A stretch of DNA of 64,000 nucleotides from an uncultured Acidobacteriota bacterium (lineage in GTDB: Bacteria > Acidobacteriota > DATKUA01). Under the pieces are notes generated by a model. It was not told where the DNA came from and made no database searches. It saw only the letters and a program-made list of their open reading frames with translations. The stretch is from positions 97,711-161,710 of the forward strand of contig CAYOXX010000002.1 in NCBI GenBank assembly GCA_964408025.1, written 5' to 3'. Position numbers and translations under genes: made by a program. Positions 20,594 through 51,988 of this stretch are shown piece after piece. Each line of letters begins with the position of its first letter. Position 1 is the first letter of the stretch.

Positions 20594-20619
20594 ACCAATA
20601 ATGTATTTGTTGTGAGTAG

Positions 20620-23443: not shown

Positions 23444-23517
23444 GTAAAGTACAAACCTTGTGACCACGACTCTCGCTTCTCATACTCAATAGATAGAGCG
23501 CGGGAGGTACTTGGCGC

Positions 23518-24927: not shown

Positions 24928-24970
24928 ATAATGTTTCCCATTGGAAGACATGGAAAGGATTTGTTAGTCT

Positions 24971-25438: not shown

Positions 25439-25442
25439 GAGT

Positions 25443-26144: not shown

Positions 26145-26207
26145 AACTATCGGTTTTTTCTCGAAGTGCGGGATCGTGAGCGCAACATTCATGGGAGATA
26201 GCTCGCT

Positions 26208-30852: not shown

Positions 30853-32967
30853 CTATCGCTCGAGATTCTGTAAAGCTTCCTGGATCTCAGGTTGGTTGGG
30901 ATTCAGATCCAGCGAGCAACGCCAGGCCTCCTCGGCGCGGTCATGCTGCCCCAGGAGCCGGAAAGTCTCTCCGAGGAGGTTGAAAGCCTCGGTGCTGCCG
31001 GGCTCCTGTGTTACCAGCCTCTGGAGAAACCTGGCTGCCCTGTCGTAGCGCCCGAGGTTGAAGTAGCTGACGCCGATGGGGCGCAACAGTTCCGGGTTTA
31101 GGGGGTCGTCGGCCGCCAACGGCTCGAGCAAGCGCAGCGCCTCTTCGAACCTCTCTGCTTCCATGTACAGTCCGGCCAGCTCGAGACTGCATTCGTCGCA
31201 ACTGGGATCGACTTGGAGGGCGGATAGGCAGGCGGCCTCGGCTCGCACCTCATCGCCCTGGAGCCTCCACATGCGGCTCTGGGCCATTAGCACTTCGGCG
31301 GAGCCGCGTACGAGCCTCCGCCCGCCGTGTGGAGTCGGGGCCGGCAGTTGAGTCGCGCTCAGCTCGAACGCGGCTGTAGCGGTTAAGCTCTCGCCCTCGC
31401 CGCCGAAGTCGACGTTCAACTCCAGGGTATGGCTGCCCGGCTCGAGCTCTGCCGTCGGCAACCGCATGAAGAGGTGGAAGAGCCCGGTGTCGTTGAACCG
31501 GCTCTTGGCGATCGAGTTCTGTCCCGCAATCCTCTCCTCCCCCGAGGCGTCCACGACGCTGTGGCGGATCGATATCGCCCCCGGCGATTCCGAGCGCCTT
31601 TCCGGCGGCAGGTAGAGTTGGCAATAGAAGAGCATCGGCGCGCCGCGGGCGAATCGGCGTCTGGGGTTAGGCAACAGCTTCAAATCGGCGCACTGGAAGG
31701 GTCGGGCGGAAATTATATCGCGCTGCTCCAAGTCCTCGAATTCCCGCACCGGTATGATCTGCCCGACGCCTGCAACGTCCGGCGGAGAGGCCGGCACGAC
31801 TATGTCTTCGGAAAGCAGATAAATCTCGCGCGAAACCTTGTTTTTAAGCAGGATGTTTAAACGGAAGCGCCCGGGCACACAGACCGTCTGGCCCTCGAAG
31901 AGGAGAGGCTGCAAGCGGGCCTCCTCGAGCTGCCGGGGAGTGAAGCTGAATTCGAGATCTTCGGTCACGGAGTGGACTGTGCGGCCATCAAAGTCGGCCA
32001 GCCGGACGTCGACATCGAATGCGCCATATATAGAATCCTCGTATCGGCCCAGGACAATTTGATCCAGTCCAAATTCGATGGCGTAGCTTATGTATGTGTC
32101 GCCGCGCTCGACCAGGTGGGGAAGCACTACGTTGTACATGTTGGCCGAGCTGAAGCTGTATTCGGTGGTGACCTGTTCTTCCCCGACAAGAATGCTATCG
32201 GCGTAGCCGGCATCTATTCCCACGTTCCGTATCTGCTCTATCCTGCTCAGCAGAGTCAGCGACGCCAAGCTGGGTCTGTCGGGTCTGTAGCCTCCCCCCG
32301 AGGGCAAATAGTTGTATGCGGCTCGAGCCAGCTCGGTATCCAAACGCCTGAGCGCCTCGTCGGTAGTCATTTGCGGATTGACCGTCACCACTAGAGCCCC
32401 TGGGCCGTCCATGACGGGGTTGTAAAGCACGAACTCGCCGGCACCGAAGCGCTGGAAGAAGATCAGATAGAAGAAGGGCGGTACGCCCAGCACAGGATCC
32501 ACCTCGTAGAACCACAATTCCATCGGGTAGGTGCTTCCACCGCTGGGGTACGTGTGCCTGGCTCTGGGAGGACCCAGGGTAATGTAGATGCGTCCCCGGT
32601 CGGTCAGCGAACCGCGTCTGGTGGCGCCCCGACTAAATATCCTGTCGGCGTACTCCAAGCGGCGCTGGTGCTCCTCGCGATACTCGTTCCTCTCAGTGCC
32701 GGGGGTAGGGTCGCGCATCTCCCAGAACATTGCGGCGAAGCGCTCGCGCTGCTCCTCGGTCTCCAGTTGTATGAAGACTTCCCGCTCACGGTCGGAGATG
32801 ATGTGCACTACCTCCTGGTTGAGCCATCGTTCCCACCTCGAGGCGAGCCGTTCCCGATCCTGCACGGAGGCGGAAGCCGTGATGGCAAGCGAGCAGTATG
32901 AGGTAACCAGCATCGCGGCAACCGACGCCCTTAGGACCAGCTTCCTCAGGATGGCCGCACGCAGCAT
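30853..32967 (-). CDS. GWxTD-domain protein with C-terminal TPR repeats, secreted. Start trimmed to MLRAAILRK
   Basis: Motif ITLGPP...YPMELWFY, typical of GWxTD proteins. A TPR-like helical C-terminus. Confidence 0.55.
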   Translation of the reverse strand: MLRAAILRKLVLRASVAAMLVTSYCSLAITASASVQDRERLASRWERWLNQEVVHIISDREREVFIQLETEEQRERFAAMFWEMRDPTPGTERNEYREEHQRRLEYADRIFSRGATRRGSLTDRGRIYITLGPPRARHTYPSGGSTYPMELWFYEVDPVLGVPPFFYLIFFQRFGAGEFVLYNPVMDGPGALVVTVNPQMTTDEALRRLDTELARAAYNYLPSGGGYRPDRPSLASLTLLSRIEQIRNVGIDAGYADSILVGEEQVTTEYSFSSANMYNVVLPHLVERGDTYISYAIEFGLDQIVLGRYEDSIYGAFDVDVRLADFDGRTVHSVTEDLEFSFTPRQLEEARLQPLLFEGQTVCVPGRFRLNILLKNKVSREIYLLSEDIVVPASPPDVAGVGQIIPVREFEDLEQRDIISARPFQCADLKLLPNPRRRFARGAPMLFYCQLYLPPERRSESPGAISIRHSVVDASGEERIAGQNSIAKSRFNDTGLFHLFMRLPTAELEPGSHTLELNVDFGGEGESLTATAAFELSATQLPAPTPHGGRRLVRGSAEVLMAQSRMWRLQGDEVRAEAACLSALQVDPSCDECSLELAGLYMEAERFEEALRLLEPLAADDPLNPELLRPIGVSYFNLGRYDRAARFLQRLVTQEPGSTEAFNLLGETFRLLGQHDRAEEAWRCSLDLNPNQPEIQEALQNLER

Positions 32968-33121
32968 CGAAGAACAATTGGTGCATCCGGGTAAACCCGG
33001 AGGATTCGAGATCATGTTGCGATTCATCTGCATCGGCCCTTGTCGTTCAAGACCTGGAGGCAATTGCCAGGCAACAGTGTCGCCCATTCCCCGGAGCGTT
33101 TGCCGGGCGGTTAGTTTCGAG

Positions 33122-34315
33122 TCAAATGATAGCCCTCAGCAGGTTACCTATTATAACACCGAGATACGTGCCGATAACGTATCCCCAGATGCCTACCAGG
33201 AGCGCGGGCAGCACCAGGTCCTTCCAGCCCTTGGCGATGGCCATCGCCGCAGCGTTCATCGGGCCGCCCAAATTGGCACTGACGGATAGCGACAGGTCCT
33301 CGAGTTTCATCTTGGTAAGCTTGCCGATCGTAAAGGTTACGAAAAAGTTCACCGCCGCAATCACTACGCAGAAAAGGAAAAGAACGGGTGCGCGCTGGAC
33401 GATCAGCCAAATGTCGGCTGGAATGCCTATGGTGAAGAAGAATATGTAGATCAGGTAGGTGCCCAGCTCGTCGGCGCCGCTTATCTTTGCAAGCTGCTTA
33501 TGGAACAGTGTCGCGATGATGACGCAGAAGGTGGTGATCAGCAGGAATTGGTTCCCAAGGATATCCCTGACTATTCCGGGCAGCGCCGAGGCGGAGATCA
33601 GCTCCGAGAGCTTGCTGGACACAGCGGCGATGCACACCGCAATGCCGAGCGCCTTGGCGATGTCCAGCAGCGAGATCTCTTTCTTCTTCCAGAAGCTGGC
33701 GGCCTGCAGGGAACTATCACCCCCCTCGGTTTCCACCTCGAGCTGGTGCGGCATGGGGTAGTTCTTGCGAAAGAACTTGAAATTGGTCAGCGATATGAGA
33801 ATCAGGAACATCCCCGCCATGATGACGTTGTCGGCAACCAGGAGCGAATTGGTGAGCTCCTCCGGGGGCCTGAAAGTGGCCGCCAGGGAGAAGAAGTTCA
33901 CGCCGCCGCCGGTGTAGCTCCCGGTCATGATCCCGGATAGCTCGGCCACGAACGGCACTATGCCGTTGAAGATGAATGCCGCCACAATCGCTCCGATCAG
34001 CGTCCCCAGGGCGCTGACGTGGAAGGCGCCGAACATCGAGCCGCTCGTGCGCACGATGTTGAAGATGTTGGCCCTGAACAGCAGGAGGGGAATGGAAACA
34101 GGAACTATATAGCTCCAGATGAGGTCGTAGCTCGGCGACTGGATGGGGAAGATCTTCAGGTTGGACAGGGCTATGGCCGCGATCAGCACAATAACGGGGC
34201 CGGTGATCTTCGCGGCCCAGCGGAAATGCTGCTCCAGGTAAATGCTCACCGCGACGCAGGCGAGCATAATTCCCCACAGCAACCACGCATCGTCTGGATG
34301 AATCAGGGAGTCCAT
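33122..34315 (-). CDS. Polytopic membrane protein, DUF819/YjcL-like
   Basis: About 11 TM segments. Weak family recollection. Confidence 0.45.
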   Translation of the reverse strand: MDSLIHPDDAWLLWGIMLACVAVSIYLEQHFRWAAKITGPVIVLIAAIALSNLKIFPIQSPSYDLIWSYIVPVSIPLLLFRANIFNIVRTSGSMFGAFHVSALGTLIGAIVAAFIFNGIVPFVAELSGIMTGSYTGGGVNFFSLAATFRPPEELTNSLLVADNVIMAGMFLILISLTNFKFFRKNYPMPHQLEVETEGGDSSLQAASFWKKKEISLLDIAKALGIAVCIAAVSSKLSELISASALPGIVRDILGNQFLLITTFCVIIATLFHKQLAKISGADELGTYLIYIFFFTIGIPADIWLIVQRAPVLFLFCVVIAAVNFFVTFTIGKLTKMKLEDLSLSVSANLGGPMNAAAMAIAKGWKDLVLPALLVGIWGYVIGTYLGVIIGNLLRAII

Positions 34316-34564: not shown

Positions 34565-36274
34565 TCAATTATCAATCGGTTCGAACTCGACATAGGCCAT
34601 CACTATGCTCTCGACGTTGCCCTCCTCGTCGAGGCGGAACTCGAACTGCTGGTCTTGGTACATCCCCGAAGAGGGCATGTCGAATAGCGTTTCGCTGACC
34701 GGTGTCAGCCTGTAGTCGAACTCGTTCTCCACGAAAACATAGAGATGTCCGTGCCGGATCGAGACGACTGCCGGTATGAACTCCTGTCCGTAGCTGCCGA
34801 CGTACCCCTGCCAATGGCTCGGTGGCGTCGGGATCTGGTCCGGATCGACCCTCGCAAACCCCATGTCGTTGTATCGGAACTCGGTTGCTATTCCATCCTC
34901 ACCGCGAACGAACGTAACTTGAGCGCCCTCCACCAGCTTACCGCGGGCGAAGTACTCTGTCTCGCTCAGGGGAAGCAGTTCCATCGGCTGGCCGGAGAGG
35001 TTCAGTATGAGCCTTCCATCCTCCGAATTGATCTCCGCCCAGTACATGTGCGACTCGTATTCCCCCGCGTAGTCCTCCCAGATACTGCTGTCAACCTCGA
35101 CAAATTGCGGCGGCTCCGGAGGCGCCTCGCCCAGCTTTGCCTCCAGCATCAGCTCCAGGGCTCGGTTCCTGATCCTGTAGAGTGGGCCTGTGGCGATGTC
35201 CTCGTTCACAAGTACGACAACGCCGATCTTCGCGTCCGGCAGGGCGGTGACGGCGGATGTGAATCCGAAAACCGCGCCGGTGTGGCCTACCGCCCTGTGG
35301 CCGCGGAACTCGCCTAGGACGTAGCCGAGACCGAAGCGCCTCGGATGCTCTTCGGTCGAGAATTGTGCCTGGAACATCCGCTCCAGCGTCTCGGATTCCA
35401 GGATCTGATTATCGCCGGCCCTGCCCTCGGCAAAAATGAACGACAGGAAGCACCCCATGTCTTCCACGGTCGAGTAAAGATTGCCCGCTGGCAGCGTACC
35501 CAGCTCGAAGAGGGGTGCCGCGATGTTTCGCCCGTCGGCGACCCACATGTAGCCCGTGGCCAGGTGCTCCCTGATCTCGGGAGTCGCCAGGAAGTCGCTG
35601 CTGGTCAAGCCCATCGGCTCCAGCAGGTGCTCTCGCTGGTACTGGACGAAAGGCTCACCGGATACCAGTTCCAGTATGTAACCGACGACGGTCACCGCGA
35701 TGTTCGAGTACTTGGTTCGAGTTTCCGGAGGGTATACCAGCTCGGTGTCAAAGATGCTCTCGACCGTTTCCCGGACCGTGGGCTCGGTGTCGTCGAAGTA
35801 GCTGCCGACCGGCGGCTCCCTGGGGAAGCCGGAAGTGTGGCTCATAAGCTGCCGCAGCGTCGTTGGCGTCTCCGTCTCGAAAGGCCTCCCGATGGAGAAG
35901 TCCGGATAGTAAGTGGTGATGTCGGCGTCGAGATCGATACTGCCAGCCTCCACCAGCTGCATCACGCCCATGTCGGTGAACAGTTTCGATATCGAGCCGA
36001 CCCTGTAGATAGTCTGCGCGTCGGCCGCGACCCAGTCTTCGCGGTCCGCCAGGCCAAACCCTTGCGCCCAGACGATTTCCTGGTCGTCCACCAGGGCGAT
36101 TGACAGGCCCGGGATCAGGCCGCGCTCCAACTCCTCGTTGATAAACTGCTCGAGCTGCTCGATGGCGCTCGAATAGATCGTAGCTTCTTGGGTAGGAGGA
36201 CAGCCGACGAACGCAGCCAGACCCGCCAACGCTCCCAGAACCAGAACCAGCTTCCGAATCACTCCAGGGAACAT
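34565..36274 (-). CDS. Beta-lactamase-family serine hydrolase (class C / PBP4*-like), lipoprotein, with a C-terminal extension
   Basis: SISK (SxxK) motif and a lipobox VGC. Confidence 0.7.
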   Translation of the reverse strand: MFPGVIRKLVLVLGALAGLAAFVGCPPTQEATIYSSAIEQLEQFINEELERGLIPGLSIALVDDQEIVWAQGFGLADREDWVAADAQTIYRVGSISKLFTDMGVMQLVEAGSIDLDADITTYYPDFSIGRPFETETPTTLRQLMSHTSGFPREPPVGSYFDDTEPTVRETVESIFDTELVYPPETRTKYSNIAVTVVGYILELVSGEPFVQYQREHLLEPMGLTSSDFLATPEIREHLATGYMWVADGRNIAAPLFELGTLPAGNLYSTVEDMGCFLSFIFAEGRAGDNQILESETLERMFQAQFSTEEHPRRFGLGYVLGEFRGHRAVGHTGAVFGFTSAVTALPDAKIGVVVLVNEDIATGPLYRIRNRALELMLEAKLGEAPPEPPQFVEVDSSIWEDYAGEYESHMYWAEINSEDGRLILNLSGQPMELLPLSETEYFARGKLVEGAQVTFVRGEDGIATEFRYNDMGFARVDPDQIPTPPSHWQGYVGSYGQEFIPAVVSIRHGHLYVFVENEFDYRLTPVSETLFDMPSSGMYQDQQFEFRLDEEGNVESIVMAYVEFEPIDN

Positions 36275-36496
36275 GTTACCCTCCTTGCCTGTAGTGTTAT
36301 CCGGTGAGGCTCCCCTTAAAGAAGCCGCTCCATCCGGTATCGGATCGGCGACCAGAAATCTAACATTGCAAGTACGGTACCGCGCGTCGCCCGTTTAAGT
36401 CAACCTATCGCTCGAAGGCCGCCCGCGGCTGTACGCGTTGCGAGGCGCGACGCGCCTCGGGCCACGACCGGAAAATCGGTATCGATATTACTATAG

Positions 36497-36829
36497 AATG
36501 CATCGAGATTATCGCGCTCGAAGCGGAATAGATGCGGGCGGAATTCAGGGCGCGGCTTCGGCTCGTCAACGGACGGCAGAATCAAGCACGACAGCATGGG
36601 CGCCGCTTGCATCTGGTCGTACACCTGGGGCGGCGAGTTCTTCGGCACCTCGTGCGCCACGCCGATGGCAGTCGGGCACATGGCCGTACTCAAGTCCAGC
36701 AATCCGAAGTTGCGTTCCTCCCGCCTTCGCAGGACTCTTGAGGCCAGCGCCGTGGACGCCGGGGAGGAGGGTAAGGACAACAGCTTCGGCTCCGGCCTGC
36801 TCCGCCTCCCGAAGCTGAAAAAGAAGTAA
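36497..36829 (+). pseudogene. Remnant of a subtilase (S8) peptidase. Only the catalytic-Ser region GTSCATPMAVG plus the C-terminus survive
   Basis: The Ser motif is readable in the frame of ORF 36596..36829. The upstream frame lacks the Asp and His boxes. Confidence 0.35.
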
Positions 36830-36899: not shown

Positions 36900-37592
36900 A
36901 TGCCGGCACCTGAAGATGACATCATGCCCATCGGAGAGCGGTTTGAACTTCCCTTTCTGGTGCCATACTACTGTCAATTCTGCAGCCCCGAATTGGTGCT
37001 CGACATCATCAGCGGGCGCGTACGGGCGGAGGATGATCCCCGCTGGGCCGAGTTCGGTGCGCGAACGAAGCGTCAATACGCCTACTGGGCCTGGCGGGCT
37101 TGCGGCATCGCATGCTTGAAGATGGCAATCGAGGCTCTTGGCGGGCCCATGCGCCCGATGATGTATTGGATCGAGGCCGCGCTGGCGATCGATGGTTTTA
37201 TACAAGAGCGCCGGGCCCAAAAGGGTAAGCCGTCGGGGTGGATACACCGCTCTCTGGCGGAGCTCGGCAGACAGAATGGCCTGGTGGGTGAGTGCCGGGC
37301 GCCGGTGGATACCGAAGAAATAGCCCGCTGCCTGGATCGCCGGCAGGTGGTCATTGCCTCGGTCTCTCATGAATTGGGCGAGTGGGGACCGGTTACCCGC
37401 AACACCGGTCATATGGTCGTCGTGCACGGCTACTCGCGCCTCGACGGCCTACTCGAAGCGCTGTTGGTAAACAACCCGTCCGGACGCTATCCAGAGCTGC
37501 GGCAGAACTGCTGGATTCCCGAAAAAAGGTTTTCGGCCGCATTCAGCGGCAGAATCATTCTCTTCGCTTCAAAGAAGAACCAACGCGATTAG
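36900..37592 (+). CDS. Putative C39-like papain-fold cysteine peptidase domain protein
   Basis: Cys in ACGIACLKMA and a His in GHMVVVHGY, in an arrangement compatible with a C39_2-like fold. Confidence 0.4.
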   Translation: MPAPEDDIMPIGERFELPFLVPYYCQFCSPELVLDIISGRVRAEDDPRWAEFGARTKRQYAYWAWRACGIACLKMAIEALGGPMRPMMYWIEAALAIDGFIQERRAQKGKPSGWIHRSLAELGRQNGLVGECRAPVDTEEIARCLDRRQVVIASVSHELGEWGPVTRNTGHMVVVHGYSRLDGLLEALLVNNPSGRYPELRQNCWIPEKRFSAAFSGRIILFASKKNQRD

Positions 37593-38773
37593 GATCGGGA
37601 AGTCAAGCGACCTAGCGTCTTAATCACACGGCTTATCTGTTCCTGCGTATGCATTGCGGTGACGACCATGCGGAAGAATCCGTGCTCTGGGCCGCCGGGG
37701 TAGAAGTTGTAAGGAACCAATTGGTCACTATCCAGCAACTCCTTATGGATTTTAAGGTTGTATTCCTTATCGCCCAGCACAAACACTGAAATCGGTGTGG
37801 GGCCATCCTCGAATTCTATCCCCAACGATCTGAGTCCGGATTTCAACAATTCGGTATTCCTTCGCAGGCTGGCCCGCAAGGTGGTGTCGCTGGACACGAT
37901 ATCTATTGAAACCATAGCGGCACAGGCAATCGCGGGGGGAAGCGGCGTAGACCCGATGTAGGCATCGCTGTGCTCGCGCACTAATTCAGTCAGCGGCTTG
38001 TCGCCGGCGACAAAGCCACCAAAACAGCCAAAAGCCTTGCTCAGAGTGCCGGTCTGGTATACGCAGTCGGGCGGCAATCCCAGGTGCTCCAAGGTTCCCC
38101 TTCCGTGCTTGCCGAGCACTCCGACGCCGTGGGCGTCGTCCATCAGGATCGCCGCCTCCCACTTTCGCGCCAGCTCCTGGTACGCGCAGATAGGAGCCAA
38201 GGCGCCAGAGGCGAAGACGCCGTCGGTGCAGATCAAAGCCTTCTGTCCGAGAGAATGATGTTCCTGAAGTTTCGATCCGAGGTCATCGACATCGCAGCTA
38301 CGGAACGTCGCCATCGGCATCGCTGACCCGTTTACCGCGTCCCTTACGCTGCAGTGGGCTCCCTCGTCCAGCAGGCAGATATCAAACATGCCTTGTAGGG
38401 CCTGCAAGAGGATGAGATTGATCATGTAGCCGCTGCAGCAGGTGACGACGTTTGGACGCTGCAAGGCCTCGGCTAGTTTTTGTTCCAGCTCGAGGTGTGC
38501 GGCGGCACTGCCGGTAGTCTGGCGCGAGCCGGCGGAGTTCATGCCCCATTTGATCAGCCCTTCCTGGGCGGCGAGAATCACTTCCTGGTTGTAGCTCATC
38601 CCGAAGTAATTAGTCCCCCCAAAATAGGTGGCCGCTTTGCCGTCCAGGTTCACGACGGTTTTGGCAGCGCTGCCTAAGACGATACTCGACATATCGGTGG
38701 CCCTGCACGTCAAGATCAGGCTTTGAGAAACGAGCGCCCGATAAAGCGGCTTATCCGACCTAGTTGACTGCAA
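37589..38773 (-). CDS. Alpha-oxoamine synthase family PLP enzyme (BioF / Kbl / SPT / CqsA-like). The start may be the internal MSSIVLG at about 38692
   Basis: MDDAHGVGVLGKHGRG and the PLP-Lys motif TGTLSKAFG. Confidence 0.7.
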   Translation of the reverse strand: MQSTRSDKPLYRALVSQSLILTCRATDMSSIVLGSAAKTVVNLDGKAATYFGGTNYFGMSYNQEVILAAQEGLIKWGMNSAGSRQTTGSAAAHLELEQKLAEALQRPNVVTCCSGYMINLILLQALQGMFDICLLDEGAHCSVRDAVNGSAMPMATFRSCDVDDLGSKLQEHHSLGQKALICTDGVFASGALAPICAYQELARKWEAAILMDDAHGVGVLGKHGRGTLEHLGLPPDCVYQTGTLSKAFGCFGGFVAGDKPLTELVREHSDAYIGSTPLPPAIACAAMVSIDIVSSDTTLRASLRRNTELLKSGLRSLGIEFEDGPTPISVFVLGDKEYNLKIHKELLDSDQLVPYNFYPGGPEHGFFRMVVTAMHTQEQISRVIKTLGRLTSRS

Positions 38774-38989
38774 AACCTATACCATCATCTGGACTTCGTT
38801 GCGCCGGGCTCTCCGTCCCCGGGAACTATTAGCGCGGATTCGAGGTGCGCGCATTGTGTAGCGCCTCGATTTGTGTACAATAGAAGTTACAAAACCATCT
38901 GTTGTATACGAATCTGGAGATCTCAAGCATTGCGACTTGCGCACCCCGTACTGCGCTGCTGACCACGTATCAAGGAGATGTGAATTGGG

Positions 38990-40804
38990 ATGAAATCAGT
39001 TAAGCCACAGTCGGTAAAGGTGCCGGAGGAACGTGAAAGTACGGGCGATTCCTACCCGTTGGATAAGCCGTCAAAGCTCGCAGACATACGCCGTTTTACG
39101 CAGGAAGTAGCCCTGGCGACCGCCGCCGTCACGCGAATCGATTTCAGTATCATCGACGAGAATCTCGTACGGGTTTCGGGCTCAGGCAACTACATCGACG
39201 AGGTGGATTTCATCTTACCGGCGCATTCCATTTCCGACCAGATATTGAAGACCGGCCAAGTGTATGTCCTTGAACATCCAAGGGAAGATCCCAGATGTAA
39301 GAAATGTAGCTACATGGGCCACTGCAAGGAGCTGGCCGAAATAAGTTATCCGGTGGTGCTCAACGGCACCCCCATCGGGAATATGGTTCTCGTCGCCTTC
39401 ACCAAGGAGCAGCGGAAACTCCTGCTGGAGCACCGGAACGATTACATTGAGTTCCTTAGCAAGATAGCGAACCTGCTGGTTAACAAGATCGAGTCCAAGG
39501 AAAAGGCGAGGCAAGTATCTCTGCTCAAGCAGCAACTCGAAACCCTAATCAACAAGATAGACCAGGGAATCGTCTACGTTGACGAGAATGGGAAGGTCCA
39601 GTTCTTTAACACCATAGCGAAACAATACCTACTCGAGGAGCTCAACTACGGTCTTTTGATGGAGTACTTCTTGCCCGAGATTTCCTGGCCGGTTACCGAC
39701 CAGATAGACAAGTTAGTCAGCCGAGATAACGAGACCTACTCAGTCAGCGTCAAACCACTGGAAGGCGTTGGCGCCTTGGTCGAAATTCAGCTCATAACCA
39801 CGATTCAACGCAAAGAGCATGATATCCGCCGCCGGATGGCAACCAAAACGCACGTGGCCGAGGCCACGTTCGACGACCTCGTTGGCAACCATCCGGAATT
39901 CCTTAAGACCGTCGAGATAGCGCGCAAATACAGCGTGGTCGACGCGACGGTACTGATCACGGCGGAGACGGGAACGGGAAAGGAGCTATTCGCACAAAGC
40001 TTGCACAACATGAGCCCCCGGCGCAACGGTCCGTTTGTGGCGGTCAATTGCGCCGCCCTGCCCGAAAGCCTGCTCGAGAGCGAGTTGTTCGGCTATGTGG
40101 GCGGCGCCTTCACCGGCGCCAAGCGGAGCGGTAAGGTGGGGCTCTTCGAGCAAGCCCACCGCGGCACGATCTTCCTCGACGAGATCGCCGAGATGCCCTT
40201 CCGGCTCCAGTCCAGCCTTCTACGCGTTCTGCAGCACAAGGAGGTGATGCGCATCGGCGACGACAAGCTGATACCTGTGGACGTCAGAATAATCACGGCA
40301 ACCAACAAGGATCTCCGGGCGCTGGTCGATAAGGAGCAGTTTCGCGAAGACCTTTATTACCGCCTCAATATCCTGAGGCTCGAAATACCGCCGCTGCGCA
40401 GACGCCGCGAGGATATTCCCCTTCTCGTTCAGCACTTCGCCATTCAGGTCTGCCGGACGTACAAGAGACCTCCGATATCTTTCTCGAAGGAGTGCGGGGA
40501 GAGGCTCAGCAACCACCACTGGCCTGGTAACATCAGAGAGCTCTATAATGTGATCCAGCGCGCCGTCCTCCTCGCCGTCGAGCCGATTATCAATGTCAAT
40601 GTGATTGACGGAATCCTCGAACATACAGGAGATGAGGGCAACGTCCAGAACCAACGGTTCGACCTGGATTTAACCGGATCCTTCAAGGACATCCAGCGAC
40701 AGATCATCCAGCAGCTATTCGAAGGTAGCAAAAGCGAGGACGAGGTAGCGCGTATCCTGGGGATTTCGAAAACCACGTTGTGGCGGCGGATGAATGCAAA
40801 ATGA
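38990..40804 (+). CDS. Sigma-54-dependent transcriptional activator with GAF and PAS sensor domains (no receiver domain), AAA+ GAFTGA motif and a Fis-type HTH
   Basis: ETGTGKE Walker A, GAFTGA, ESELFGY and a C-terminal HTH. A Cys/His cluster CKKCSYMGHC lies in the GAF domain. Confidence 0.85.
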   Translation: MKSVKPQSVKVPEERESTGDSYPLDKPSKLADIRRFTQEVALATAAVTRIDFSIIDENLVRVSGSGNYIDEVDFILPAHSISDQILKTGQVYVLEHPREDPRCKKCSYMGHCKELAEISYPVVLNGTPIGNMVLVAFTKEQRKLLLEHRNDYIEFLSKIANLLVNKIESKEKARQVSLLKQQLETLINKIDQGIVYVDENGKVQFFNTIAKQYLLEELNYGLLMEYFLPEISWPVTDQIDKLVSRDNETYSVSVKPLEGVGALVEIQLITTIQRKEHDIRRRMATKTHVAEATFDDLVGNHPEFLKTVEIARKYSVVDATVLITAETGTGKELFAQSLHNMSPRRNGPFVAVNCAALPESLLESELFGYVGGAFTGAKRSGKVGLFEQAHRGTIFLDEIAEMPFRLQSSLLRVLQHKEVMRIGDDKLIPVDVRIITATNKDLRALVDKEQFREDLYYRLNILRLEIPPLRRRREDIPLLVQHFAIQVCRTYKRPPISFSKECGERLSNHHWPGNIRELYNVIQRAVLLAVEPIINVNVIDGILEHTGDEGNVQNQRFDLDLTGSFKDIQRQIIQQLFEGSKSEDEVARILGISKTTLWRRMNAK

Positions 40805-41533
40805 AAACAACGATTTCAAATTGAAATACGTTAGCACGAATACTCTCCCCGCAAGCCGATCAAAAGAGATCCCACTGAGTATGCGCAATCGGTATGGCAA
40901 GCCTCTCATCTTCGCCGACGAGATCCGACCCTGTTGACAAAGATGCATGTTATGCCACCGGTCCGAGCCCGATCCGCCCGATAGACTGTTAACAGATTTG
41001 TCTTTCAGAAGGCTCGGTGGCATTTTCGGGAGTGATAGAAAGGCGTAATCCTATCGCCGATGTGAAAGCGATCCTTCCCGGATGATAAGGTACTTCGCTT
41101 CCCGGCGCGTCCGCCGGACAGAGACCCTTGTCTCCTCTCGAGCCCTTGGGCGAGACGGGCGCATTCGAATGGTTGCTTCTAGTCTCGACAAAGTCGCGGA
41201 AGCGGCTGAAAACAGTCGCGCACAGGCTACAGGCGAGTCGCGTTGAAAACGTTTTCCCATCCCACCAGGGCGGCATATATTTTGCTAATTATCGGGCTGG
41301 AGCGAAGGTGAATAGTATTTTGCGGCAGCTTTTCTATCTCGAGTCGGGAATCACGAGTACGATTCCATCGCCCCGCTTGAAATTTTCAGCGTAAGATGAA
41401 AGGCTGGAGATACAAACCCTTTGATGAAACAAGCCCCGCCTTGCGGGAGTAGGGAGGAGGTGCCATTTGACATGAAAAGGAACATAGCTTTTCACCAGTA
41501 TCAAGAACTGCAAATCTTCCCAAGGAGTATGAT

Positions 41534-44203
41534 ATGAAGAAAAATATCATAGCAGCGGCACTGATCCTGATGTTCCTGTTCAGTGCCCAACTGCTGTACG
41601 GTCAGCGCGCAACGGCAAAGCTGGAGGGCACGATCAGGGACACCGACGGCCTGGTTGTGACCGGAGTCACGGTGACCGCCAGCAATCCCGAGACCGGCAT
41701 CACATGGACGGTCACTTCCGATGACCGCGGCCGCTACGTCTTCTACACGCTGCCGGCTGGCAGCTACGACATCAGGCTCTCCAAGCCCGACTACCAGGAA
41801 CAGCTAGTCGAAGGCATCAGGCTTTTCATCGGCCAGGAGATCAACTACGACTTCGAAATGGTGGCCGGCGTTTTCGAGGAGACTATTGTGATCACCGGCG
41901 AAGCGCCGCTGGTGGAGCTGAAGAAGTCGGACGTGGGGATGGTTATCGCCCAGGAATTCATCCAGTCGATCCCGATCGTCAACAGGACCTTCGAGAGCCT
42001 CGCCCACCTCTCCCCCGGCGTCGTTCCCAACTTCTCGGGTGCCGGCCTCGGCACCAACGTCTCCGTCAACGCCCAGCGCGGCTACAGCAACACCTTCCTG
42101 ATCGACGGAGTGAGTAACGACAACGCCCGCCTCGGCTTTAACATCAACTCCATCTCGCAGGACGCCATACAGGAGTTCGATGTCATCACCCAGATGGCGC
42201 CGGCGGAGTACGGCCAGGCCATCGGCGGGATCATCAACATCGCCACCCGCAGCGGCGGCAATGAATTCCACGGTTCGGCGTTCGGCTTCTTCCAGGACGG
42301 CAGGTTGAACACGCTGCACTACTACGCCACGGAGAAGCCGGAAACCAGCCGGATAATGGGCGGCTTCACTCTGGGCGGACCGATAATCCGCGACAAGGCC
42401 CACTTCTTCTTCAGCTACGAGGGCGACGACAACGACTACTACACCTTCGTCACGCAGCCGCGCAATCCCGGCCAGCACCCCGCGGGCTGGGTCGAGCACC
42501 TCACCATGGTCAGGATCGACTACCGGCCCAATGAGCGGGACATGTTCAACTTCCGCTTCAACGGGACCAACAACACGTGGGTAAATCTCTTCGTCGGCGA
42601 ATGGGACGACGAAACCACCGGTTGGGACGAAGTACGCTATTCCTACACATTCCAGGCCAACTATGTCCGCTGGTTTGGTACGGACATGGTCAACGAGCTG
42701 CGTTTCGCCTACACCAGGCAGAACTACAAGGGCGATCCCTACACCGAATCCGGGCCCTTCCACTGGCACTGGAACGGCAACTGGGGCAAGTGGCTCACGC
42801 TGCCCTACAACGTCAACGACTCCAACCTCCAGCTCCTAGATAACTTCACCATCATGACCGACACCCACACGTTCAAGTTCGGCGCCGACTACATCCGCGT
42901 GGGCAACTGGGGAGCTAACCGCAACTGGGGCGACGGGGCCTGGGAATTCTGGGGCAACAATCTGGAGTTCGATCCGGGCGTCCCCGCATCGTACCCCAAG
43001 TGGTACCAGAGGCGGCTCGGGCCTGACGACTACGAGGTTCCCGACAACCTGATCTCCTTCTTCGTCCAGGACCAGTGGGACATCAGCGACAACTTCACCA
43101 TCAACTACGGTCTCCGTTGGGAATACGAGGACTTCTTCACCAGGATCCCGTCGAAGGCGGTGCTTTTTGACGGGGAAGTCTCGCCCGACCTGAACAACTT
43201 CATGCCTCGTATCGGCTTCACCTGGCGGCCATGGGAGGACGGAAACACGGTCATCCGCGGCGGCTACGGCAGGTTCTACAACCAGGTGCCGGGCAACCAG
43301 GCCGTGTTCATCATGATCAACACCGTCAACACCCTGGGGTGGATAACCATATGGGAGGACAACGGCATCATGTCTTATCCCAACCCGCCGGTCATCGACG
43401 TTCTTGATCCCTCCGTGTTCTGGGGCAAGGACGTCATGGACTCGGAAGCCGAGCTTCCCAAGCTGGACCAGTTTACCATCGGCATCTCGCACCAACTCAC
43501 GCGCAGCACCGCCGTCCACGCCGACTTCACTTACAACAGGGGCTCCCAACTCTGGGGAATGGTCAACCGCAACGCGCGCGATCCTGTTACAGGTCTGCGG
43601 CCGGATCCTAACTGGAGGTGTCTCGCCACCCAGTCGGCCATTCTCAGCTCCGAATACAAGGGTTTGCTCACACGCCTGGAGCATCGTTTCCCGCGCGGCG
43701 TTCTCAACGTCTCCTACACTTATGCCTACGCCTACGACAACAATCGCGGCGACCCGAATTCCGCCGGCGTAACCGACCAGTTCGACCTCGACGTCGACTG
43801 GGGTCCGTCTCCGAACGACATCCGCCACCGCCTGGTCATCAGCGGCTTCGTGGGGCTGCCGTTTGGGTTCAACGTCTCCGGCGTCTTGAATTACCGCACG
43901 GCGTCTCCCTACAGCCAGCGAGAGGGATGGGACATCAACGGAGATGATTTCACCAACGACCGCCCGCCCGGGGTGCCCAAGAACTCGGAACGCGGCGACG
44001 ACTGGTCCACACTCGACTTGCGATTCACCAAGTTCTTCTCACTCGACCGCTACCGCGTGGAGTTCTTTGCCGAAGTCTTCAATCTCTTCAACACCGTGAA
44101 CTTCAGCAGCTACAGAAACAACATCTACGACGAAAACTTCGGCGAACCGACCTGGGCTGCCGATGCCAGGACGTGGCAACTGGGCTTCCGCTTCGACTTC
44201 TGA
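41534..44203 (+). CDS. TonB-dependent receptor-like outer-membrane beta-barrel with an N-terminal carboxypeptidase-regulatory-like domain
   Basis: Signal peptide, CarbopepD_reg-like N-terminus, plug-like region, and a C-terminal aromatic residue (…FRFDF). Confidence 0.75.
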   Translation: MKKNIIAAALILMFLFSAQLLYGQRATAKLEGTIRDTDGLVVTGVTVTASNPETGITWTVTSDDRGRYVFYTLPAGSYDIRLSKPDYQEQLVEGIRLFIGQEINYDFEMVAGVFEETIVITGEAPLVELKKSDVGMVIAQEFIQSIPIVNRTFESLAHLSPGVVPNFSGAGLGTNVSVNAQRGYSNTFLIDGVSNDNARLGFNINSISQDAIQEFDVITQMAPAEYGQAIGGIINIATRSGGNEFHGSAFGFFQDGRLNTLHYYATEKPETSRIMGGFTLGGPIIRDKAHFFFSYEGDDNDYYTFVTQPRNPGQHPAGWVEHLTMVRIDYRPNERDMFNFRFNGTNNTWVNLFVGEWDDETTGWDEVRYSYTFQANYVRWFGTDMVNELRFAYTRQNYKGDPYTESGPFHWHWNGNWGKWLTLPYNVNDSNLQLLDNFTIMTDTHTFKFGADYIRVGNWGANRNWGDGAWEFWGNNLEFDPGVPASYPKWYQRRLGPDDYEVPDNLISFFVQDQWDISDNFTINYGLRWEYEDFFTRIPSKAVLFDGEVSPDLNNFMPRIGFTWRPWEDGNTVIRGGYGRFYNQVPGNQAVFIMINTVNTLGWITIWEDNGIMSYPNPPVIDVLDPSVFWGKDVMDSEAELPKLDQFTIGISHQLTRSTAVHADFTYNRGSQLWGMVNRNARDPVTGLRPDPNWRCLATQSAILSSEYKGLLTRLEHRFPRGVLNVSYTYAYAYDNNRGDPNSAGVTDQFDLDVDWGPSPNDIRHRLVISGFVGLPFGFNVSGVLNYRTASPYSQREGWDINGDDFTNDRPPGVPKNSERGDDWSTLDLRFTKFFSLDRYRVEFFAEVFNLFNTVNFSSYRNNIYDENFGEPTWAADARTWQLGFRFDF

Positions 44204-44333: not shown

Positions 44334-45356
44334 CTATTCATCCTGCCGATAAGTGTCCGCGAAGTAATCGTAGGCCATGCGGGATATCCGTCCCACAGCG
44401 ATCTCGAATTCATACCATTCAGATCTCAGGTCGTTGGCGAATACGCAGACGACCACGTGGCCCGCGCCGTTAGGTAGGAAGATGATCCCGGAGTCGCAGA
44501 GTACCGTCTGCCTCCAGTCCCTGCCGAGGCTGCCCCCCTTGCGGGCGACGGTGGTGCCGAAGGGAAGGTAACGGGTTATCAGCCGCGCGCCGGTGTGGTG
44601 ACGCAAAGTGTTGATGATCGAGTCGCTGGTTTCCCGGTCCACGATTTCGCCCTTCACCAGCTTCTCCAGCAGGATGCCGATCTCGCGTGGAGTGGACATG
44701 TTGTGTACCTCGGCGTCCCACCGCGCCATGCGCTCCCGGCGCTCCTCGCTCGCCCAGTATTCGGCGGGAATCCTCCAGAGTTGCGGGATGGTCAGCCGCT
44801 CGTTCATGTCCAGCCCGAGGTAGCCGAGGATAAGCTGGTTTGTGTTGAGGTCGATCACCGTCCGCTCCAGGCCCAGCTCCCGCATGTAGGCGTCGATCCT
44901 CTCGGCGCCGACAACGTCGAAGAGTATGTCTGTGGCGGTGTTGTCGCTGACGGCCATCATCAGCAATTGCAGGTCGTTGAGCGAGAGATTCAGGCCGGGC
45001 CTCATGGCCGGTAGCAATCCGCTGCCGTAGGTCTTCATCGCCTCGGTCAGGACGATGCGGTCTTCGAGGGAGTAGTAACCCTCGTCGATGAGCCTGAACA
45101 GGGTCACCAGCACGGGGATCTTGAAGACGCTGGCGATCTGGTACTGCTCGTCCTCGTTTATGCCTACCGATTCCCCCGATTCCACGTGCAGGACGTATAC
45201 GCCAACATCGCCCTCGATGCCGCTCGCCACGACCTCGATCCGGTTCTGAAGTTCTTCCAGGGACTCGATTTCCGGGAACTCCAGCGATTCCTGAGCCGCG
45301 AGCGGGGCGGCAAGTAGAAAGAATGACGATAACATCGCATATATGCTTCGCTTCAT
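44334..45356 (-). CDS. Secreted class A beta-lactamase-like serine hydrolase
   Basis: SVFK (SxxK), SDN and a KGG-variant of the KTG box. Confidence 0.6.
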   Translation of the reverse strand: MKRSIYAMLSSFFLLAAPLAAQESLEFPEIESLEELQNRIEVVASGIEGDVGVYVLHVESGESVGINEDEQYQIASVFKIPVLVTLFRLIDEGYYSLEDRIVLTEAMKTYGSGLLPAMRPGLNLSLNDLQLLMMAVSDNTATDILFDVVGAERIDAYMRELGLERTVIDLNTNQLILGYLGLDMNERLTIPQLWRIPAEYWASEERRERMARWDAEVHNMSTPREIGILLEKLVKGEIVDRETSDSIINTLRHHTGARLITRYLPFGTTVARKGGSLGRDWRQTVLCDSGIIFLPNGAGHVVVCVFANDLRSEWYEFEIAVGRISRMAYDYFADTYRQDE

Positions 45357-46816: not shown

Positions 46817-46909
<93 letters not shown>

Positions 46910-47858: not shown

Positions 47859-49370
47859 GTGGAGGGAAGTGCTGTACGTAACAACATTCAGGCTCGCCCC
47901 ATGGGCTTCCGCAGATGTCGATATGTACTGGCAGCAACGCTGTTAGCTACCTTCGCTGCCGGCGCGGCGGGACCAGCCGACAGCGACGACATGCCGCCAG
48001 CCGGGTTACCCGACTCGCTGATTGAGCTGGGCACCGGCGGCAGCTCCTACGCCATCGTCGTCGACAAGAGTCAGTCCTCTCTCGATATCTACCACAAGCT
48101 CGATGACGGGGCCGTGGTCAGGGTGCGCAGTTTTCAGGCCTCGACGGGTCTCAACGGCGGCGACAAGCGGCACGAGGGCGACCAGCGAACCCCCGAGGGC
48201 ATCTACTACTTCATTCGCATTCGGGAAGACGATGAGCTGCTGAGCGAGTACGGAATCCGCGCCTTCGACCTCAACTACCCCAACGAGCTGGACCGCATCC
48301 TGGGCAAAGAGGGAAGCGGCATCTGGCTGCACGCCACCGACGAGCCGGAGCGGCTGCTGGAACCCCGCTCCAGCCGCGGCTGCGTGGTGGTGAGCAACGA
48401 TGACATCCGCGAGATCTCCCGCTACATCACCCTCTACCGCACCCCCATCGTGATCACCGACCGATCGTCTTACAATAGCCCGGCGGAGCTGGGCGCCGCC
48501 CGTGAGAGGATACAGCTGTTCGTCCGGAGCTGGCTCGATTCCTGGGCGTCTCAGGACTTCGAACGCTACAGCCGCTGCTACAGCGACGGCTTCCGCGGCG
48601 GCGGCGAGAGACTGCGTGCCTGGATGCGACGTAAGCGTGCTGTATTCCAAGCGACCACCTGGGCCGGAATCGACGTCGCCGACATCAAAATCATGCGCTG
48701 CGGCAACTACTACGCCATCAGCTTCTACCAGCGCTACCGCTCTAACCTGATGGACGACACCGGTATTAAAAGCATCTACGTCGTCGAGGAAGCCGACTGT
48801 CCAGGGATCGTGGGCGAAGAGTGGCACCCCGTCGGCTACGCGCGCTCCGGCAGCAGCTGGCACCAAGGCCCGCCCCGTCTCAGCGCCGTCGTCAGCGACC
48901 TGGCGGAGGTCGAATTAGACGCTGCCGGGAGGCTCGCCCTGGCGAGCCCACAGATGCGGCTGCCGCTGTCGGATGCGGGCGGTAGGCGCAGGGGCGCAGC
49001 GCGGACCGCAGCACCGGTGGTGGCCGCGGAAGCGTTTCAGATCACCGGCGCGCAGGGCGACCGCATCGCTTTCAGCATGCGCCTGAGCAAGGTGAGCCGG
49101 GATGCCTCGATCCGGCGAGGCTGGATGTTCCTGGTGGCGCGCTGGGGTGGGCAGCACGGCTACACAGTCTTCCCCGACGCACCTCTGCGGGACGGCCGCC
49201 CGGTCGCCTATGCTGCGGGCGACAGATACGGCATCCGGTGGTTCAAGATAGTCGAGGGCACCATCGAGCGACCTGCTCACGACGCCACGCTGCAGGAGAT
49301 CCGCTGCCTCGTCTTCTCCGCCGAGGGAGAGCTGCTCGTCGACTCCGTCCTTGCAACCGGAGTGTCATAA
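47859..49370 (+). CDS. Secreted L,D-transpeptidase (YkuD domain) with a C-terminal NTF2/SnoaL-like domain and a C-terminal extension. GTG start; the true start may be the ATG at 47901
   Basis: Catalytic His/Cys motifs (GIWLHAT ... SRGCVVV). Confidence 0.7.
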   Translation: MEGSAVRNNIQARPMGFRRCRYVLAATLLATFAAGAAGPADSDDMPPAGLPDSLIELGTGGSSYAIVVDKSQSSLDIYHKLDDGAVVRVRSFQASTGLNGGDKRHEGDQRTPEGIYYFIRIREDDELLSEYGIRAFDLNYPNELDRILGKEGSGIWLHATDEPERLLEPRSSRGCVVVSNDDIREISRYITLYRTPIVITDRSSYNSPAELGAARERIQLFVRSWLDSWASQDFERYSRCYSDGFRGGGERLRAWMRRKRAVFQATTWAGIDVADIKIMRCGNYYAISFYQRYRSNLMDDTGIKSIYVVEEADCPGIVGEEWHPVGYARSGSSWHQGPPRLSAVVSDLAEVELDAAGRLALASPQMRLPLSDAGGRRRGAARTAAPVVAAEAFQITGAQGDRIAFSMRLSKVSRDASIRRGWMFLVARWGGQHGYTVFPDAPLRDGRPVAYAAGDRYGIRWFKIVEGTIERPAHDATLQEIRCLVFSAEGELLVDSVLATGVS

Positions 49371-49379
49371 GGAGGCTAT

Positions 49380-50111
49380 ATGAGATCGCTAAAGGTAATT
49401 ATCTTCCGCGATACCGACAAGCCTTACACCCTCATTCTCTCCCCAGCGCTCATGATCGCACTCTCGTTCTCGCTGGTTGCCATAACCTCGCTGCTGACCT
49501 TCTCCGTGATCAGCAACGTCCTGCTTCTCTCCGAGGACACGGCGGCCGGTAGCGACCGGTCCGCTGCCTCTGCGGACCGAACAGGTCGGGATGAGGCCGC
49601 CGTCGCTGAGGGAGCCGAGGTAAGCGGCACCGCGGAACCCGACGCCGCCCCGGCCGAAACTCGCGAGGGCGTCGCGGAGCCCGAGGAGGGCGCGTTGGAG
49701 CTGCCGGCTGTCGAAAACAACCTCGAACCGTGGATCGCCGACGACAGCATGTTCAGCGTGCAGGTGATAGGTGGGCCGGATTTCGAGGCCGGCGAAGTCA
49801 GCCTCGACACTCGCATCTCCAAAGAGGTCGACCGCGGTAGGGTCGGCAGCGGCCGCTACGTCGCCGCCCTGGTCACCAGCGACGGCCTCCTCGAACCGGT
49901 TTTCCCCGCCGAGGGCATGGTCAGGGCGGAAGGCAGCCGCATCGTCAACCCCGAAGACGGTGAGCTGTTCAGAATCGCCTACAGCAGGGATATCTCCTTC
50001 AGCTTTGCTGCCGGCGACGCCGAGCAGCACGCCGCGCTGGCCATCTTCCTATTCGACGCAGAGACCCGACGGTTACTGTGCAGAACTATTGTAGAGTTGT
50101 CCGCGAGATAA
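49380..50111 (+). CDS. Membrane-anchored hypothetical protein (one N-terminal TM helix, acidic linker)
   Basis: ORF track. It overlaps the next gene by 34 nt. Confidence 0.4.
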   Translation: MRSLKVIIFRDTDKPYTLILSPALMIALSFSLVAITSLLTFSVISNVLLLSEDTAAGSDRSAASADRTGRDEAAVAEGAEVSGTAEPDAAPAETREGVAEPEEGALELPAVENNLEPWIADDSMFSVQVIGGPDFEAGEVSLDTRISKEVDRGRVGSGRYVAALVTSDGLLEPVFPAEGMVRAEGSRIVNPEDGELFRIAYSRDISFSFAAGDAEQHAALAIFLFDAETRRLLCRTIVELSAR

Positions 50112-51943: not shown

Positions 51944-51988
51944 CCACTATCCTGTATTGGCTCTCTTCCGGAACGCTTCGAGAACGGT

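Follow-up and report, generated by a model that had tools for sequence, protein, structure and literature searches.

What is a lone alpha-oxoamine synthase gene doing between a peptidase gene and a sigma-54 activator, and what does it have to do with the large outer-membrane receptor that follows? The question is raised by a stretch of 64,000 nt from an uncultured Acidobacteriota bacterium (GTDB DATKUA01; CAYOXX010000002.1, positions 97,711-161,710, forward strand), hereafter called the window. Here, a gene for a pyridoxal-phosphate (PLP) enzyme of the alpha-oxoamine synthase (AOS) family is divergent from a gene for a bacterial enhancer-binding protein (EBP), next to which stands a gene for a TonB-dependent receptor (TBDR; Table 1). 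A preliminary description of the locus had proposed either a module of signal synthase and ketone sensor or a specialised amino-ketone pathway. Genes were called from an open reading frame (ORF) listing together with Pfam and NCBIfam scans, the Pfam scan covering the larger window ORFs, and all three genes of the earlier description are present in the order given there. Together they form the centre of a set of genes that is conserved in uncultured Acidobacteriota and, to judge from its promoters, under sigma-54 control. We consider it probable that the region is the control centre of an EBP/sigma-54 regulon for the acquisition of peptides of the D-amino-acid or peptidoglycan type. The regulon architecture is very likely correct, and the substrate class, D-amino-acid-containing peptides that would probably derive from peptidoglycan, is a tentative assignment that may well turn out to be wrong.

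The regulon can be recognized by its promoters. Alignment of the EBP-TBDR gap with the gaps of related loci (designated by L numbers) exposed a near-invariant GCGGCA(T/C)-N5-TTGC(T/A) block. The pattern GGYAY-N5-TTGCW, in which GG and GC are exactly 10 nt apart in a YTGGCACG-N4-TTGCW-like context, matches five times in the 64-kb window against an expectation of 0.53, and none of 100 shuffles reached five matches. Four of the five fall between genes of the locus and read in the direction of the gene that they precede, whose start codon follows at a distance of 75-250 nt. They lie in front of the AOS gene (P_AOS), the receptor gene (P_TBDR, inside the EBP-TBDR gap) and two genes for serine hydrolases (P_blaA and P_S12). 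The preliminary description had found no convincing -24/-12 promoter by eye and had suggested a search for GG-N10-GC; run with the sigma-54-like context, that search recovers these four sites and overturns the earlier statement.

Counterparts of the promoters occur at the same positions in the loci L001, L003, L004, L007, L016 and L017, where the flanking DNA barely aligns. In particular, the core GGTAT.GG..TTGCA of P_AOS is invariant in all five aligned lineages and was found in L017 too, P_TBDR is conserved in L001, L003, L004, L007 and L017, and P_S12 is conserved in L001, L003 and L004. The counterparts of P_blaA in L003 and L004 stand back to back with the promoter of a dipeptide-epimerase operon. 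This is one of two promoters that sister loci have in addition, and it is followed by the gene for the dipeptide epimerase, then a second AOS paralogue and then a GNAT gene; the other precedes an S8 protease gene, beyond which a C39-like peptidase is encoded on that strand. Both are placed back to back with one of the four window-type promoters. Four conserved intergenic promoters with counterparts in sister loci make the locus very probably a multi-promoter sigma-54 regulon.

Divergent promoter pairs of this kind are seen at positions 3430-3490 of L003 and at 2621-2680 and 13979-14041 of L004, with the -24 elements about 30 bp apart; activator sites for one promoter would therefore fall within the transcribed leader of the other. 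The fifth pattern match in the window, GGTATGATCCTTGCT at 12287-12301 (-), precedes a DUF4147/MOFRL ORF (10911-12263, -) and is separated from its GTG start by only about 25 nt. Either the match is due to chance, or the ORF may be one more sigma-54 target whose start codon is wrongly placed.

The proteins of the locus are kept together with its promoters. EBP, AOS, the C39-like peptidase, TBDR, the class-A-like and S12 hydrolases, the DUF819 protein and the GWxTD protein are retained in related loci at 46-75% protein identity. AOS, EBP and TBDR are found together in every related locus recovered, as expected of the functional unit that had been suspected from their arrangement, and TBDR is next to EBP in L003, L004, L007 and L017. 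Because AOS and TBDR each have a conserved sigma-54 promoter, an EBP would be needed for their expression. The EBP in the centre of the locus is the only sigma-54 activator among the window's annotated ORFs, and we infer that it is the obvious activator of these promoters.

The EBP contains the Pfam domains Sigma54_activat (3e-68), AAA_lid_14 and the Fis-type HTH_8, and the motifs GETGTGKE (Walker A) and GAFTGA can be read in its translation. By its AAA+ domain, its Walker A and GAFTGA motifs and its C-terminal helix-turn-helix it is a bacterial enhancer-binding protein. In an AlphaFold model (40 homologues; predicted local distance difference test score, pLDDT, 91.4) the N-terminus is formed by a GAF domain (residues ~29-147), a long helix and a PAS domain (~193-285), with no receiver domain. 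The best whole-model match is the GAF-PAS part of DhaR(N) (4lrz/4lry, E 1.4e-8), which according to the titles of these entries is complexed with DhaK and DhaL. Model and match together confirm that the activator was rightly described as a receiver-less GAF-PAS protein. E. coli DhaR has the same order of GAF, PAS, AAA+ and HTH domains, but sequence identity is only 14-16% and no DhaK- or DhaL-like gene is seen here; moreover, DhaR is not known to use sigma-54.

In an exhaustive search the sensor proved to belong to a family with 689 representative members, most of which are EBPs some 590 aa long. Its GAF domain displays the motif Cys103-x2-Cys106-x5-Cys112, which is kept in 39 of 40 homologues. 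A fourth cysteine in this segment (residues 103-119, window 39296-39346) is present in 21 of the 40 and is replaced by Ser here. Such a motif may be a site for a metal or an Fe-S cluster, and to this extent it speaks less for the ketone sensing that was proposed earlier.

Control of amino-acid catabolism by GAF/PAS activators and sigma-54 is well precedented, and the reconstructed sigma-54 regulons of Clostridiales include many amino-acid catabolic operons (PMC6615313). The regulons of PrdR, OrdR, LeuR and CdsR in Clostridiales, and of RocR and AcoR in Bacillus, likewise combine a receiver-less EBP with a ligand-type sensor beside its targets and local -24/-12 promoters driving transport and catabolic genes. 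By contrast, the regulon described here belongs to a Gram-negative host, and among its presumed targets are a TonB-dependent transporter of the outer membrane, serine hydrolases that are periplasmic or lipoproteins, and an AOS. Its EBP differs in the cysteine motif of the sensor, in that no upstream activator sequence was found, and in its distance from the best-matching NCBIfam model, PrdR (379 bits, cut-off 795).

The identification of P_TBDR also bears on the EBP-TBDR gap (729 bp in the ORF listing), which had been taken for a 730-nt untranslated leader with a possible cis-regulatory RNA and a weak resemblance to the cobalamin riboswitch. The promoter puts the start of transcription near 41297, so that the gap is divided into about 466 bp of upstream DNA and a 5' untranslated region (5'UTR) of about 237 nt. 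The cobalamin-like string (41029-41052) lies upstream of P_TBDR. The Rfam scan suggested at the time, run on 30-50 kb of the window (20 kb) and on 40780-41560 alone, gave no cobalamin match and no other riboswitch or bacterial cis-regulatory family at E<=10; the matches obtained were only eukaryotic or irrelevant noise. RNAalifold found no consensus structure in five orthologous leaders (-2.2 kcal/mol), and the single-sequence fold of the leader is unremarkable (z-score -1.46). The riboswitch interpretation is essentially refuted.

Two features of the 5'UTR are nevertheless conserved. The distance from the -12 element to the receptor ATG is about 240-250 nt in the lineages in which the receptor start is known (L003, L004, L007, L017), and about 75 nt before the ATG there is a Shine-Dalgarno (SD)-like box with the consensus AGGAGGTG-N5-TGACRTRAA. 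In these four of five lineages the box consists of a strong SD sequence followed by a two-codon mini-ORF, ATG-ACR-stop; the mini-ORF is absent from the window, where ATT replaces ATG. Apart from chance hits, a metagenome-wide scan for the box turned up a single additional copy of this locus. In view of the constant length of the 5'UTR, the box may have a function in translation. Control of the receptor by a cis-regulatory RNA in the gap, whether a riboswitch or a leader-peptide attenuator, would likewise agree with the constant length and the conserved box, but in view of the negative Rfam and folding results, the missing mini-ORF in the window and the restriction of the box to this type of locus we regard it as very improbable. 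As a separate observation, the window has a 21-codon upstream ORF (41472-41537) that runs into the TBDR start codon.

The palindrome TTTCAAATTGAAA at the other end of the gap was considered as a common activator site. Each of the six orthologous loci has it once, in the corresponding position, as against four copies in 1.18 Mb of unrelated loci. With a single copy in each locus, and the other promoters lacking it, it was rejected in this role.

Table 1. Features of the sigma-54-controlled locus (window coordinates; promoters on the minus strand are given from high to low position)
Feature	Position	Strand	Basis and remarks
GWxTD-TPR protein, last gene of putative S12-DUF819 operon	30853..33087	-	Pfam; synteny in L001, L004, L010
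DUF819 membrane protein, putative inner-membrane transporter	33122..34315	-	Pfam; conserved downstream of S12 hydrolase
S12-family (class-C/DD-peptidase-like) serine hydrolase lipoprotein with DUF3471 C-terminal domain	34565..36274	-	Pfam
P_S12, GGTACCGTACTTGCA	36381-36367	-	Pattern match; ~93 nt upstream of S12 hydrolase gene
Decayed sigma-54 promoter, CGGTATCGATATTACT	36477-36492	+	Sequence read; compared with L001 and L003
S8 (subtilisin-like) protease gene remnant	36536..36796	+	tblastn
Cytoplasmic C39-like (papain-fold) cysteine peptidase	36900..37592	+	Pfam Peptidase_C39_2
AOS-family PLP enzyme, 367 aa, cytoplasmic	37589..38692	-	Pfam Aminotran_1_2
P_AOS, GGTATAGGTTTTGCA	38783-38769	-	Pattern match; -12 GC ~75 nt upstream of AOS ATG
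EBP, sigma-54 activator, 604 aa	38990-40804	+	Pfam and NCBIfam
Palindrome TTTCAAATTGAAA (TTTCA-N3-TGAAA)	40814..40826		Immediately 3' of EBP stop codon; one copy in window
P_TBDR, GGCATATATTTTGCT	41272-41286	+	Pattern match
Predicted TBDR 5'UTR, ~237 nt	41297..41533	+	Start placed from promoter position
Shine-Dalgarno-like box, AGGAGGTG-N5-TGACATGAA	41455-41476	+	Conserved across lineages
Oar-subclass TonB-dependent transporter (TBDR), 889 aa	41534-44203	+	Pfam
Periplasmic class-A/PBP-A-like serine hydrolase	44334..45356	-	Pfam Beta-lactamase2
P_blaA, GGCATGATATTTGCA	45476-45462	-	Pattern match; ~105 nt upstream of class-A-like hydrolase ATG

The AOS begins at the ATG at 38692 and not at the TTG at 38773. 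This TTG is upstream of the gene's own sigma-54 promoter, which would lie inside the TTG extension, and a public collection holds an identical 367-aa protein with the ATG start (P0001). Residues His113, Asp186/His188, Ser218-Lys219 (the PLP lysine) and Arg341 align with those of SPT (3a2b), a bifunctional BioF/Kbl enzyme (7poa) and Kbl (3tqx), and the catalytic residues are invariant in 12 relatives. The protein is a fold-type-I PLP enzyme with the conserved catalytic residues of the alpha-oxoamine synthase family. Within this family we classified it by curated NCBIfam equivalog scores of hidden Markov models, and it remains below every cut-off: BioF (TIGR00858, the best-scoring model, 266 bits vs 426), Kbl (NF005394, 236 vs 460; TIGR01822, 196 vs 493), SPT (233 vs 500), ALAS (178 vs 339) and CqsA/LqsA (NF005526, 124 vs 428). 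Similarity to the solved structures of SPT, the BioF/Kbl enzyme and Kbl is nearly equal (E 2e-50 to 1e-45). Compared with these structures, the AOS lacks about 25 residues at its N-terminus and has FA-SGALAP in place of their FSM(D/E)GD.

One might suppose that the AOS is simply a housekeeping BioF or Kbl which lies here by chance. BioF is indeed its best NCBIfam model, and JGI annotations label relatives as 8-amino-7-oxononanoate synthase. However, the scores below both cut-offs, the even similarity to SPT, BioF/Kbl and Kbl, the short N-terminus and altered loop, the conserved sigma-54 promoter of its own and the fixed partners all speak against it. The Pfam scan yielded no biotin-synthesis family in the window, the scanned window ORFs include neither a bio gene nor a threonine dehydrogenase gene (tdh), and related loci are likewise free of bio genes. 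The earlier statement that the gene stands outside a biotin operon is thus upheld, the AOS is not a BioF, and a chance housekeeping gene is the explanation to which we give hardly any credence. Kbl with threonine dehydrogenase is still instructive as an AOS-family enzyme that is used catabolically and splits a 2-amino-3-keto acid with CoA. Its catalytic residues align with those of the AOS, the differences being the bit score, the absence of an adjacent tdh, the shorter N-terminus and the altered FSMDGD loop.

A second possibility is an autoinducer circuit. A diffusible amino- or hydroxy-ketone produced by the AOS would be sensed by the GAF domain of the EBP, which in response would activate the AOS gene by positive feedback and, as outputs of a group behaviour, the genes for the secreted hydrolases and the receptor. 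The divergent AOS and EBP genes with a sigma-54 promoter have the layout of a feedback loop, secreted proteases are typical outputs of quorum sensing, and CqsA and LqsA share the PLP fold and family of the AOS. Their model nevertheless scores far below those of BioF, Kbl and SPT, only two of the eleven matching AOS-family models being weaker, and no CqsA structure is among the PDB hits at E<=1e-20. No histidine kinase of the CqsS/LqsS type was seen among the annotated genes of the locus or of related loci, the partner being an EBP, and sister-genome regulons contain two AOS paralogues. With its partners in acquisition and catabolism, and with the metabolic genes that adjoin its relatives in other phyla without this EBP, a signal synthase of the CqsA/LqsA type is not borne out, and an autoinducer circuit is very doubtful. 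The other early suggestion, a specialised amino-ketone pathway, is compatible with our results.

The genomic neighbourhoods of AOS relatives point in a metabolic direction. All close relatives found (58-69% identity) come from uncultured Acidobacteriota, and every one of them is encoded in this type of locus; distant ones are 34-48% identical. In Calditrichota, Spirochaetes and Methylomirabilis loci a relative adjoins a dipeptide-epimerase gene on the same strand, an arrangement shared by the second AOS paralogue of the Acidobacteriota sister loci. Ten other loci, of which eight are titled Planctomycetota or Planctomycetaceae (the others being L014 and its counterpart), have the relative next to a gene for an Ord-like (2,4-diaminopentanoate-dehydrogenase-like) protein and/or a LysA-like gene, usually between both. 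The LysA-like gene of L014 scores as lysA (349.5 bits, cut-off 297.9). Most of these ten loci carry a Beta-lactamase2 gene, and in one Planctomycetota locus an AOS relative is next to DUF819 and S12 hydrolase genes. We interpret these neighbours as a probable metabolic signature, tied to the chemistry of D-amino acids, dipeptides and diaminopimelate and not to an autoinducer synthase. The Ord-like dehydrogenase of the Planctomycetota-type loci would then be a partner analogous to threonine dehydrogenase.

In L014 the cluster (6974-11607) consists of co-directional genes for the Ord-like protein, the AOS relative and the LysA-like protein and, after a gap, a 412-aa Beta-lactamase2 protein; the Ord-AOS-LysA cluster recurs in L029, L031, L033, L037, L038, L047, L052, L081 and L086. 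We know of no described pathway with this set of genes. An NtrC-type regulator near the Calditrichota AOS (L021) was considered as a counterpart of the EBP and rejected, being an unrelated response regulator about 7 kb away. The contexts of the distant relatives P0016, P0012, P0050 and P0060 are uninformative or show an adjacent gene with an Ala_racemase_N domain.

The hydrolases give the regulon its apparent direction. The class-A-like protein has the motifs SVFK and SDN, but its KTG is changed to KGG, and some 45 inserted residues take the place of the omega loop, the region that carries Glu166. With 128 bits against a cut-off of 200 it does not qualify as a class A beta-lactamase, and its nearest structures are 4ewf and that of Tll2115, which we take to be a PBP-A DD-peptidase. 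The S12 hydrolase contains SISK, YSN and HTG and a lipoprotein signal (...FVGC), scores 76.5 bits against a class C cut-off of 415, and has orthologues in L001, L003, L004 and L018. The GWxTD-TPR protein encoded in the same putative operon starts at 32967 in public calls (704 aa). The DUF819 family is taken up in a discussion of families of the CPA/AT transporter superfamily (PMC8396727).

If both proteins with a beta-lactamase fold were true beta-lactamases, induced through the EBP by an antibiotic or by cell-wall damage, the locus would serve beta-lactam resistance. Such a function could be read from the Pfam Beta-lactamase2 and Beta-lactamase hits, the SxxK, SDN and YxN motifs and the conserved sigma-54 promoters of both genes. 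It is at odds with the low scores, the KGG motif, the replaced omega-loop region and the resemblance to Tll2115. Furthermore, it leaves TBDR, AOS, DUF819, dipeptide epimerase and the S8 and C39-like peptidases without a function. We consider resistance an improbable explanation.

The dipeptide epimerase is encoded in sister loci, and the window lacks the corresponding operon. The MR_MLE protein of L004 can be placed in the dipeptide-epimerase group by its similarity to 3q45 (3e-83), 3jva (2e-72) and 1jpm (2e-72), the last being the L-Ala-D/L-Glu epimerase of B. subtilis according to its PDB name. With 222 bits it remains below the cut-off of the NCBIfam dipeptide-epimerase equivalog (500), and for this reason we assign no substrate. 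Together, the co-regulated hydrolases and transporter and the epimerase and S8 protease of the sister genomes would make up a set for acquisition and catabolism.

In the receptor, a signal peptide is followed by an N-terminal CarboxypepD_reg extension, a Plug domain and a barrel (PF13620, PF07715, PF25183, PF00593). These domains place it in the Oar subclass, named after Oar of Myxococcus xanthus, to which it is likened by architecture and which exports the protease PopC across the outer membrane (PMC6434023). The S8 protease of sister loci is co-regulated with the receptor and subtilisin-like. In the window, however, only a remnant of its gene is left, matching residues 461-548, in the C-terminal part, of the 561-aa L004 orthologue. 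A 77-aa Peptidase_S8 fragment is found at the equivalent position in L010; the L004 gene is intact. The promoter upstream of the remnant has AC in place of the -12 GC, and its equivalent in L001, the intact CGGTATCGATATTGCT, fronts the C39-like gene. The C39-like gene is convergent with the AOS gene and overlaps its end, and the convergence recurs wherever the sequence of a related locus extends far enough. No solved relative of its product was found by sequence. To judge from the remnant and the damaged promoter, the S8/C39 arm of the regulon appears to be decaying in the window genome.

These observations bear on the direction of transport. The Oar-type transporter may export the S8 protease, and perhaps other hydrolases, so that the regulon would serve predation or an attack outside the cell instead of nutrient uptake; the receptor architecture and the signal peptide and sigma-54 promoter of the sister-locus protease agree with this, and in relatives such a role is conceivable. 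In the window, by contrast, receptor and promoter are intact although the S8 gene is lost, and because of this loss protease export is not the whole story here. L001 and L003 also have no S8 gene in the sequence recovered, this class of transporters is abundant and mostly of unknown role, and cytoplasmic catabolic enzymes are co-regulated. An export function as the main purpose of the locus therefore appears to us to have little probability.

In the scavenging regulon that we favour instead, the EBP, presumably made from its own promoter, would sense a cue through its GAF-PAS module and activate sigma-54 RNA polymerase at the four promoters of the window. The outputs would be the Oar-type transporter at the outer membrane, the PBP-A/class-A-like serine hydrolase in the periplasm, the S12 DD-peptidase-like lipoprotein with the DUF819 protein as inner-membrane carrier and the GWxTD-TPR protein, and the AOS in the cytoplasm. 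In relatives, the cytoplasmic outputs would also comprise the epimerase, a second AOS, the GNAT protein and the C39-like peptidase. Such a set would allow D-amino-acid-containing peptides to be captured, trimmed, imported and broken down in the cytoplasm. The AOS may act as an output enzyme that, like Kbl, makes or breaks a C-C bond next to the amino group of an amino acid.

The closest functional parallel is the recycling of murein peptides. The known sets (ykfABCD in B. subtilis, mpaA-ycjG in E. coli) provide an L-Ala-D/L-Glu epimerase, a cysteine peptidase (papain-like or other) or metallo-peptidase, a carboxypeptidase and a transporter, and the sister-locus epimerase is close to YkfB (1jpm). 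They differ from our locus in the lack of an AOS, and in that here S12 and class-A/PBP-A serine hydrolases, presumed uptake through a TonB-dependent transporter and sigma-54 control are combined; the window genome in turn has no epimerase operon.

Several points weigh against the scavenging regulon. To our knowledge AOS chemistry has no role in murein-peptide recycling, and a literature search for AOS with dipeptide epimerase or peptidoglycan found nothing relevant. Some relatives of the second paralogue adjoin an Ala_racemase_N-domain gene, which by its size we take to be YggS-like, and have no peptide-related neighbours. Every hydrolase scores below the curated family cut-offs, so that their substrates are suggested by family resemblance. 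The loss of the S8 gene and the absence of the epimerase operon imply that the pathway of the window genome is a reduced version. The sigma factor gene rpoN lies outside the window. No upstream activator sequence shared by the promoters was found among dyads (half-sites of 4-5 nt, gaps of 0-15) and 7-8-mers upstream of 21 promoters, among near-perfect palindromes upstream of the four window promoters, or in footprint alignments; the EBP is accordingly linked to the promoters by proximity and co-conservation only. Finally, we also have to consider that Oar-type transporters can export a protease instead of importing a nutrient (PMC6434023).

The surroundings of the locus are variable. Flanking gene content differs among related loci (e.g., L004 vs L005). 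Positions 14000-48000 of the window have a G+C content of 0.46-0.61, as opposed to 0.63-0.67 in the flanks, and this block, which ends near a tRNA-Ser(GGA) gene (46818-46907, -), could be an island or merely a region of different composition. It contains a co-directional cluster (19145-27401, +) of genes for a class-III aminotransferase, an amidohydrolase, a PLP decarboxylase, a Na:alanine symporter, a hypothetical protein, an Asp/Glu/hydantoin racemase and an M20 peptidase. The cluster looks like a utilisation set for hydantoins or N-carbamoyl and D-amino acids; no sigma-54 pattern match was found in front of it. Just outside the regulon, in the high-G+C flank (47859-53221), are genes for a YkuD L,D-transpeptidase with a Cds6_C domain, an M99 carboxypeptidase and a LysM protein; such enzymes of cell-wall peptides so close to the locus speak for the scavenging reading.

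For annotation, the lesson is that an AOS of this kind should not be named BioF, nor the hydrolases beta-lactamase. A literature search for sigma-54 regulons with TonB-dependent transporters in Acidobacteria found nothing relevant, and the repeated pairing of AOS with dipeptide epimerase has no biochemical explanation known to us. It is a speculative and rather unlikely possibility that the short AOS clade (~360-370 aa, with the altered FSMDGD loop) represents an enzyme not recognised so far that acts in the metabolism of D-amino acids, diaminopimelate or cell-wall peptides, placed in Acidobacteriota under an EBP switch with a metal or Fe-S site of three or four cysteines in its GAF domain. 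If true, this would mean a new catabolic reaction and a new kind of EBP sensor. Soils and sediments are rich in Acidobacteriota, most of which have not been cultured, and little is known about the ways in which these bacteria detect and acquire organic nitrogen. The locus offers a compact and testable system, with one activator, four to six sigma-54 promoters, an Oar-type transporter and DD-peptidase-like hydrolases. Should peptide scavenging be its function, it would give these bacteria a regulated route for recycling bacterial cell-wall debris.

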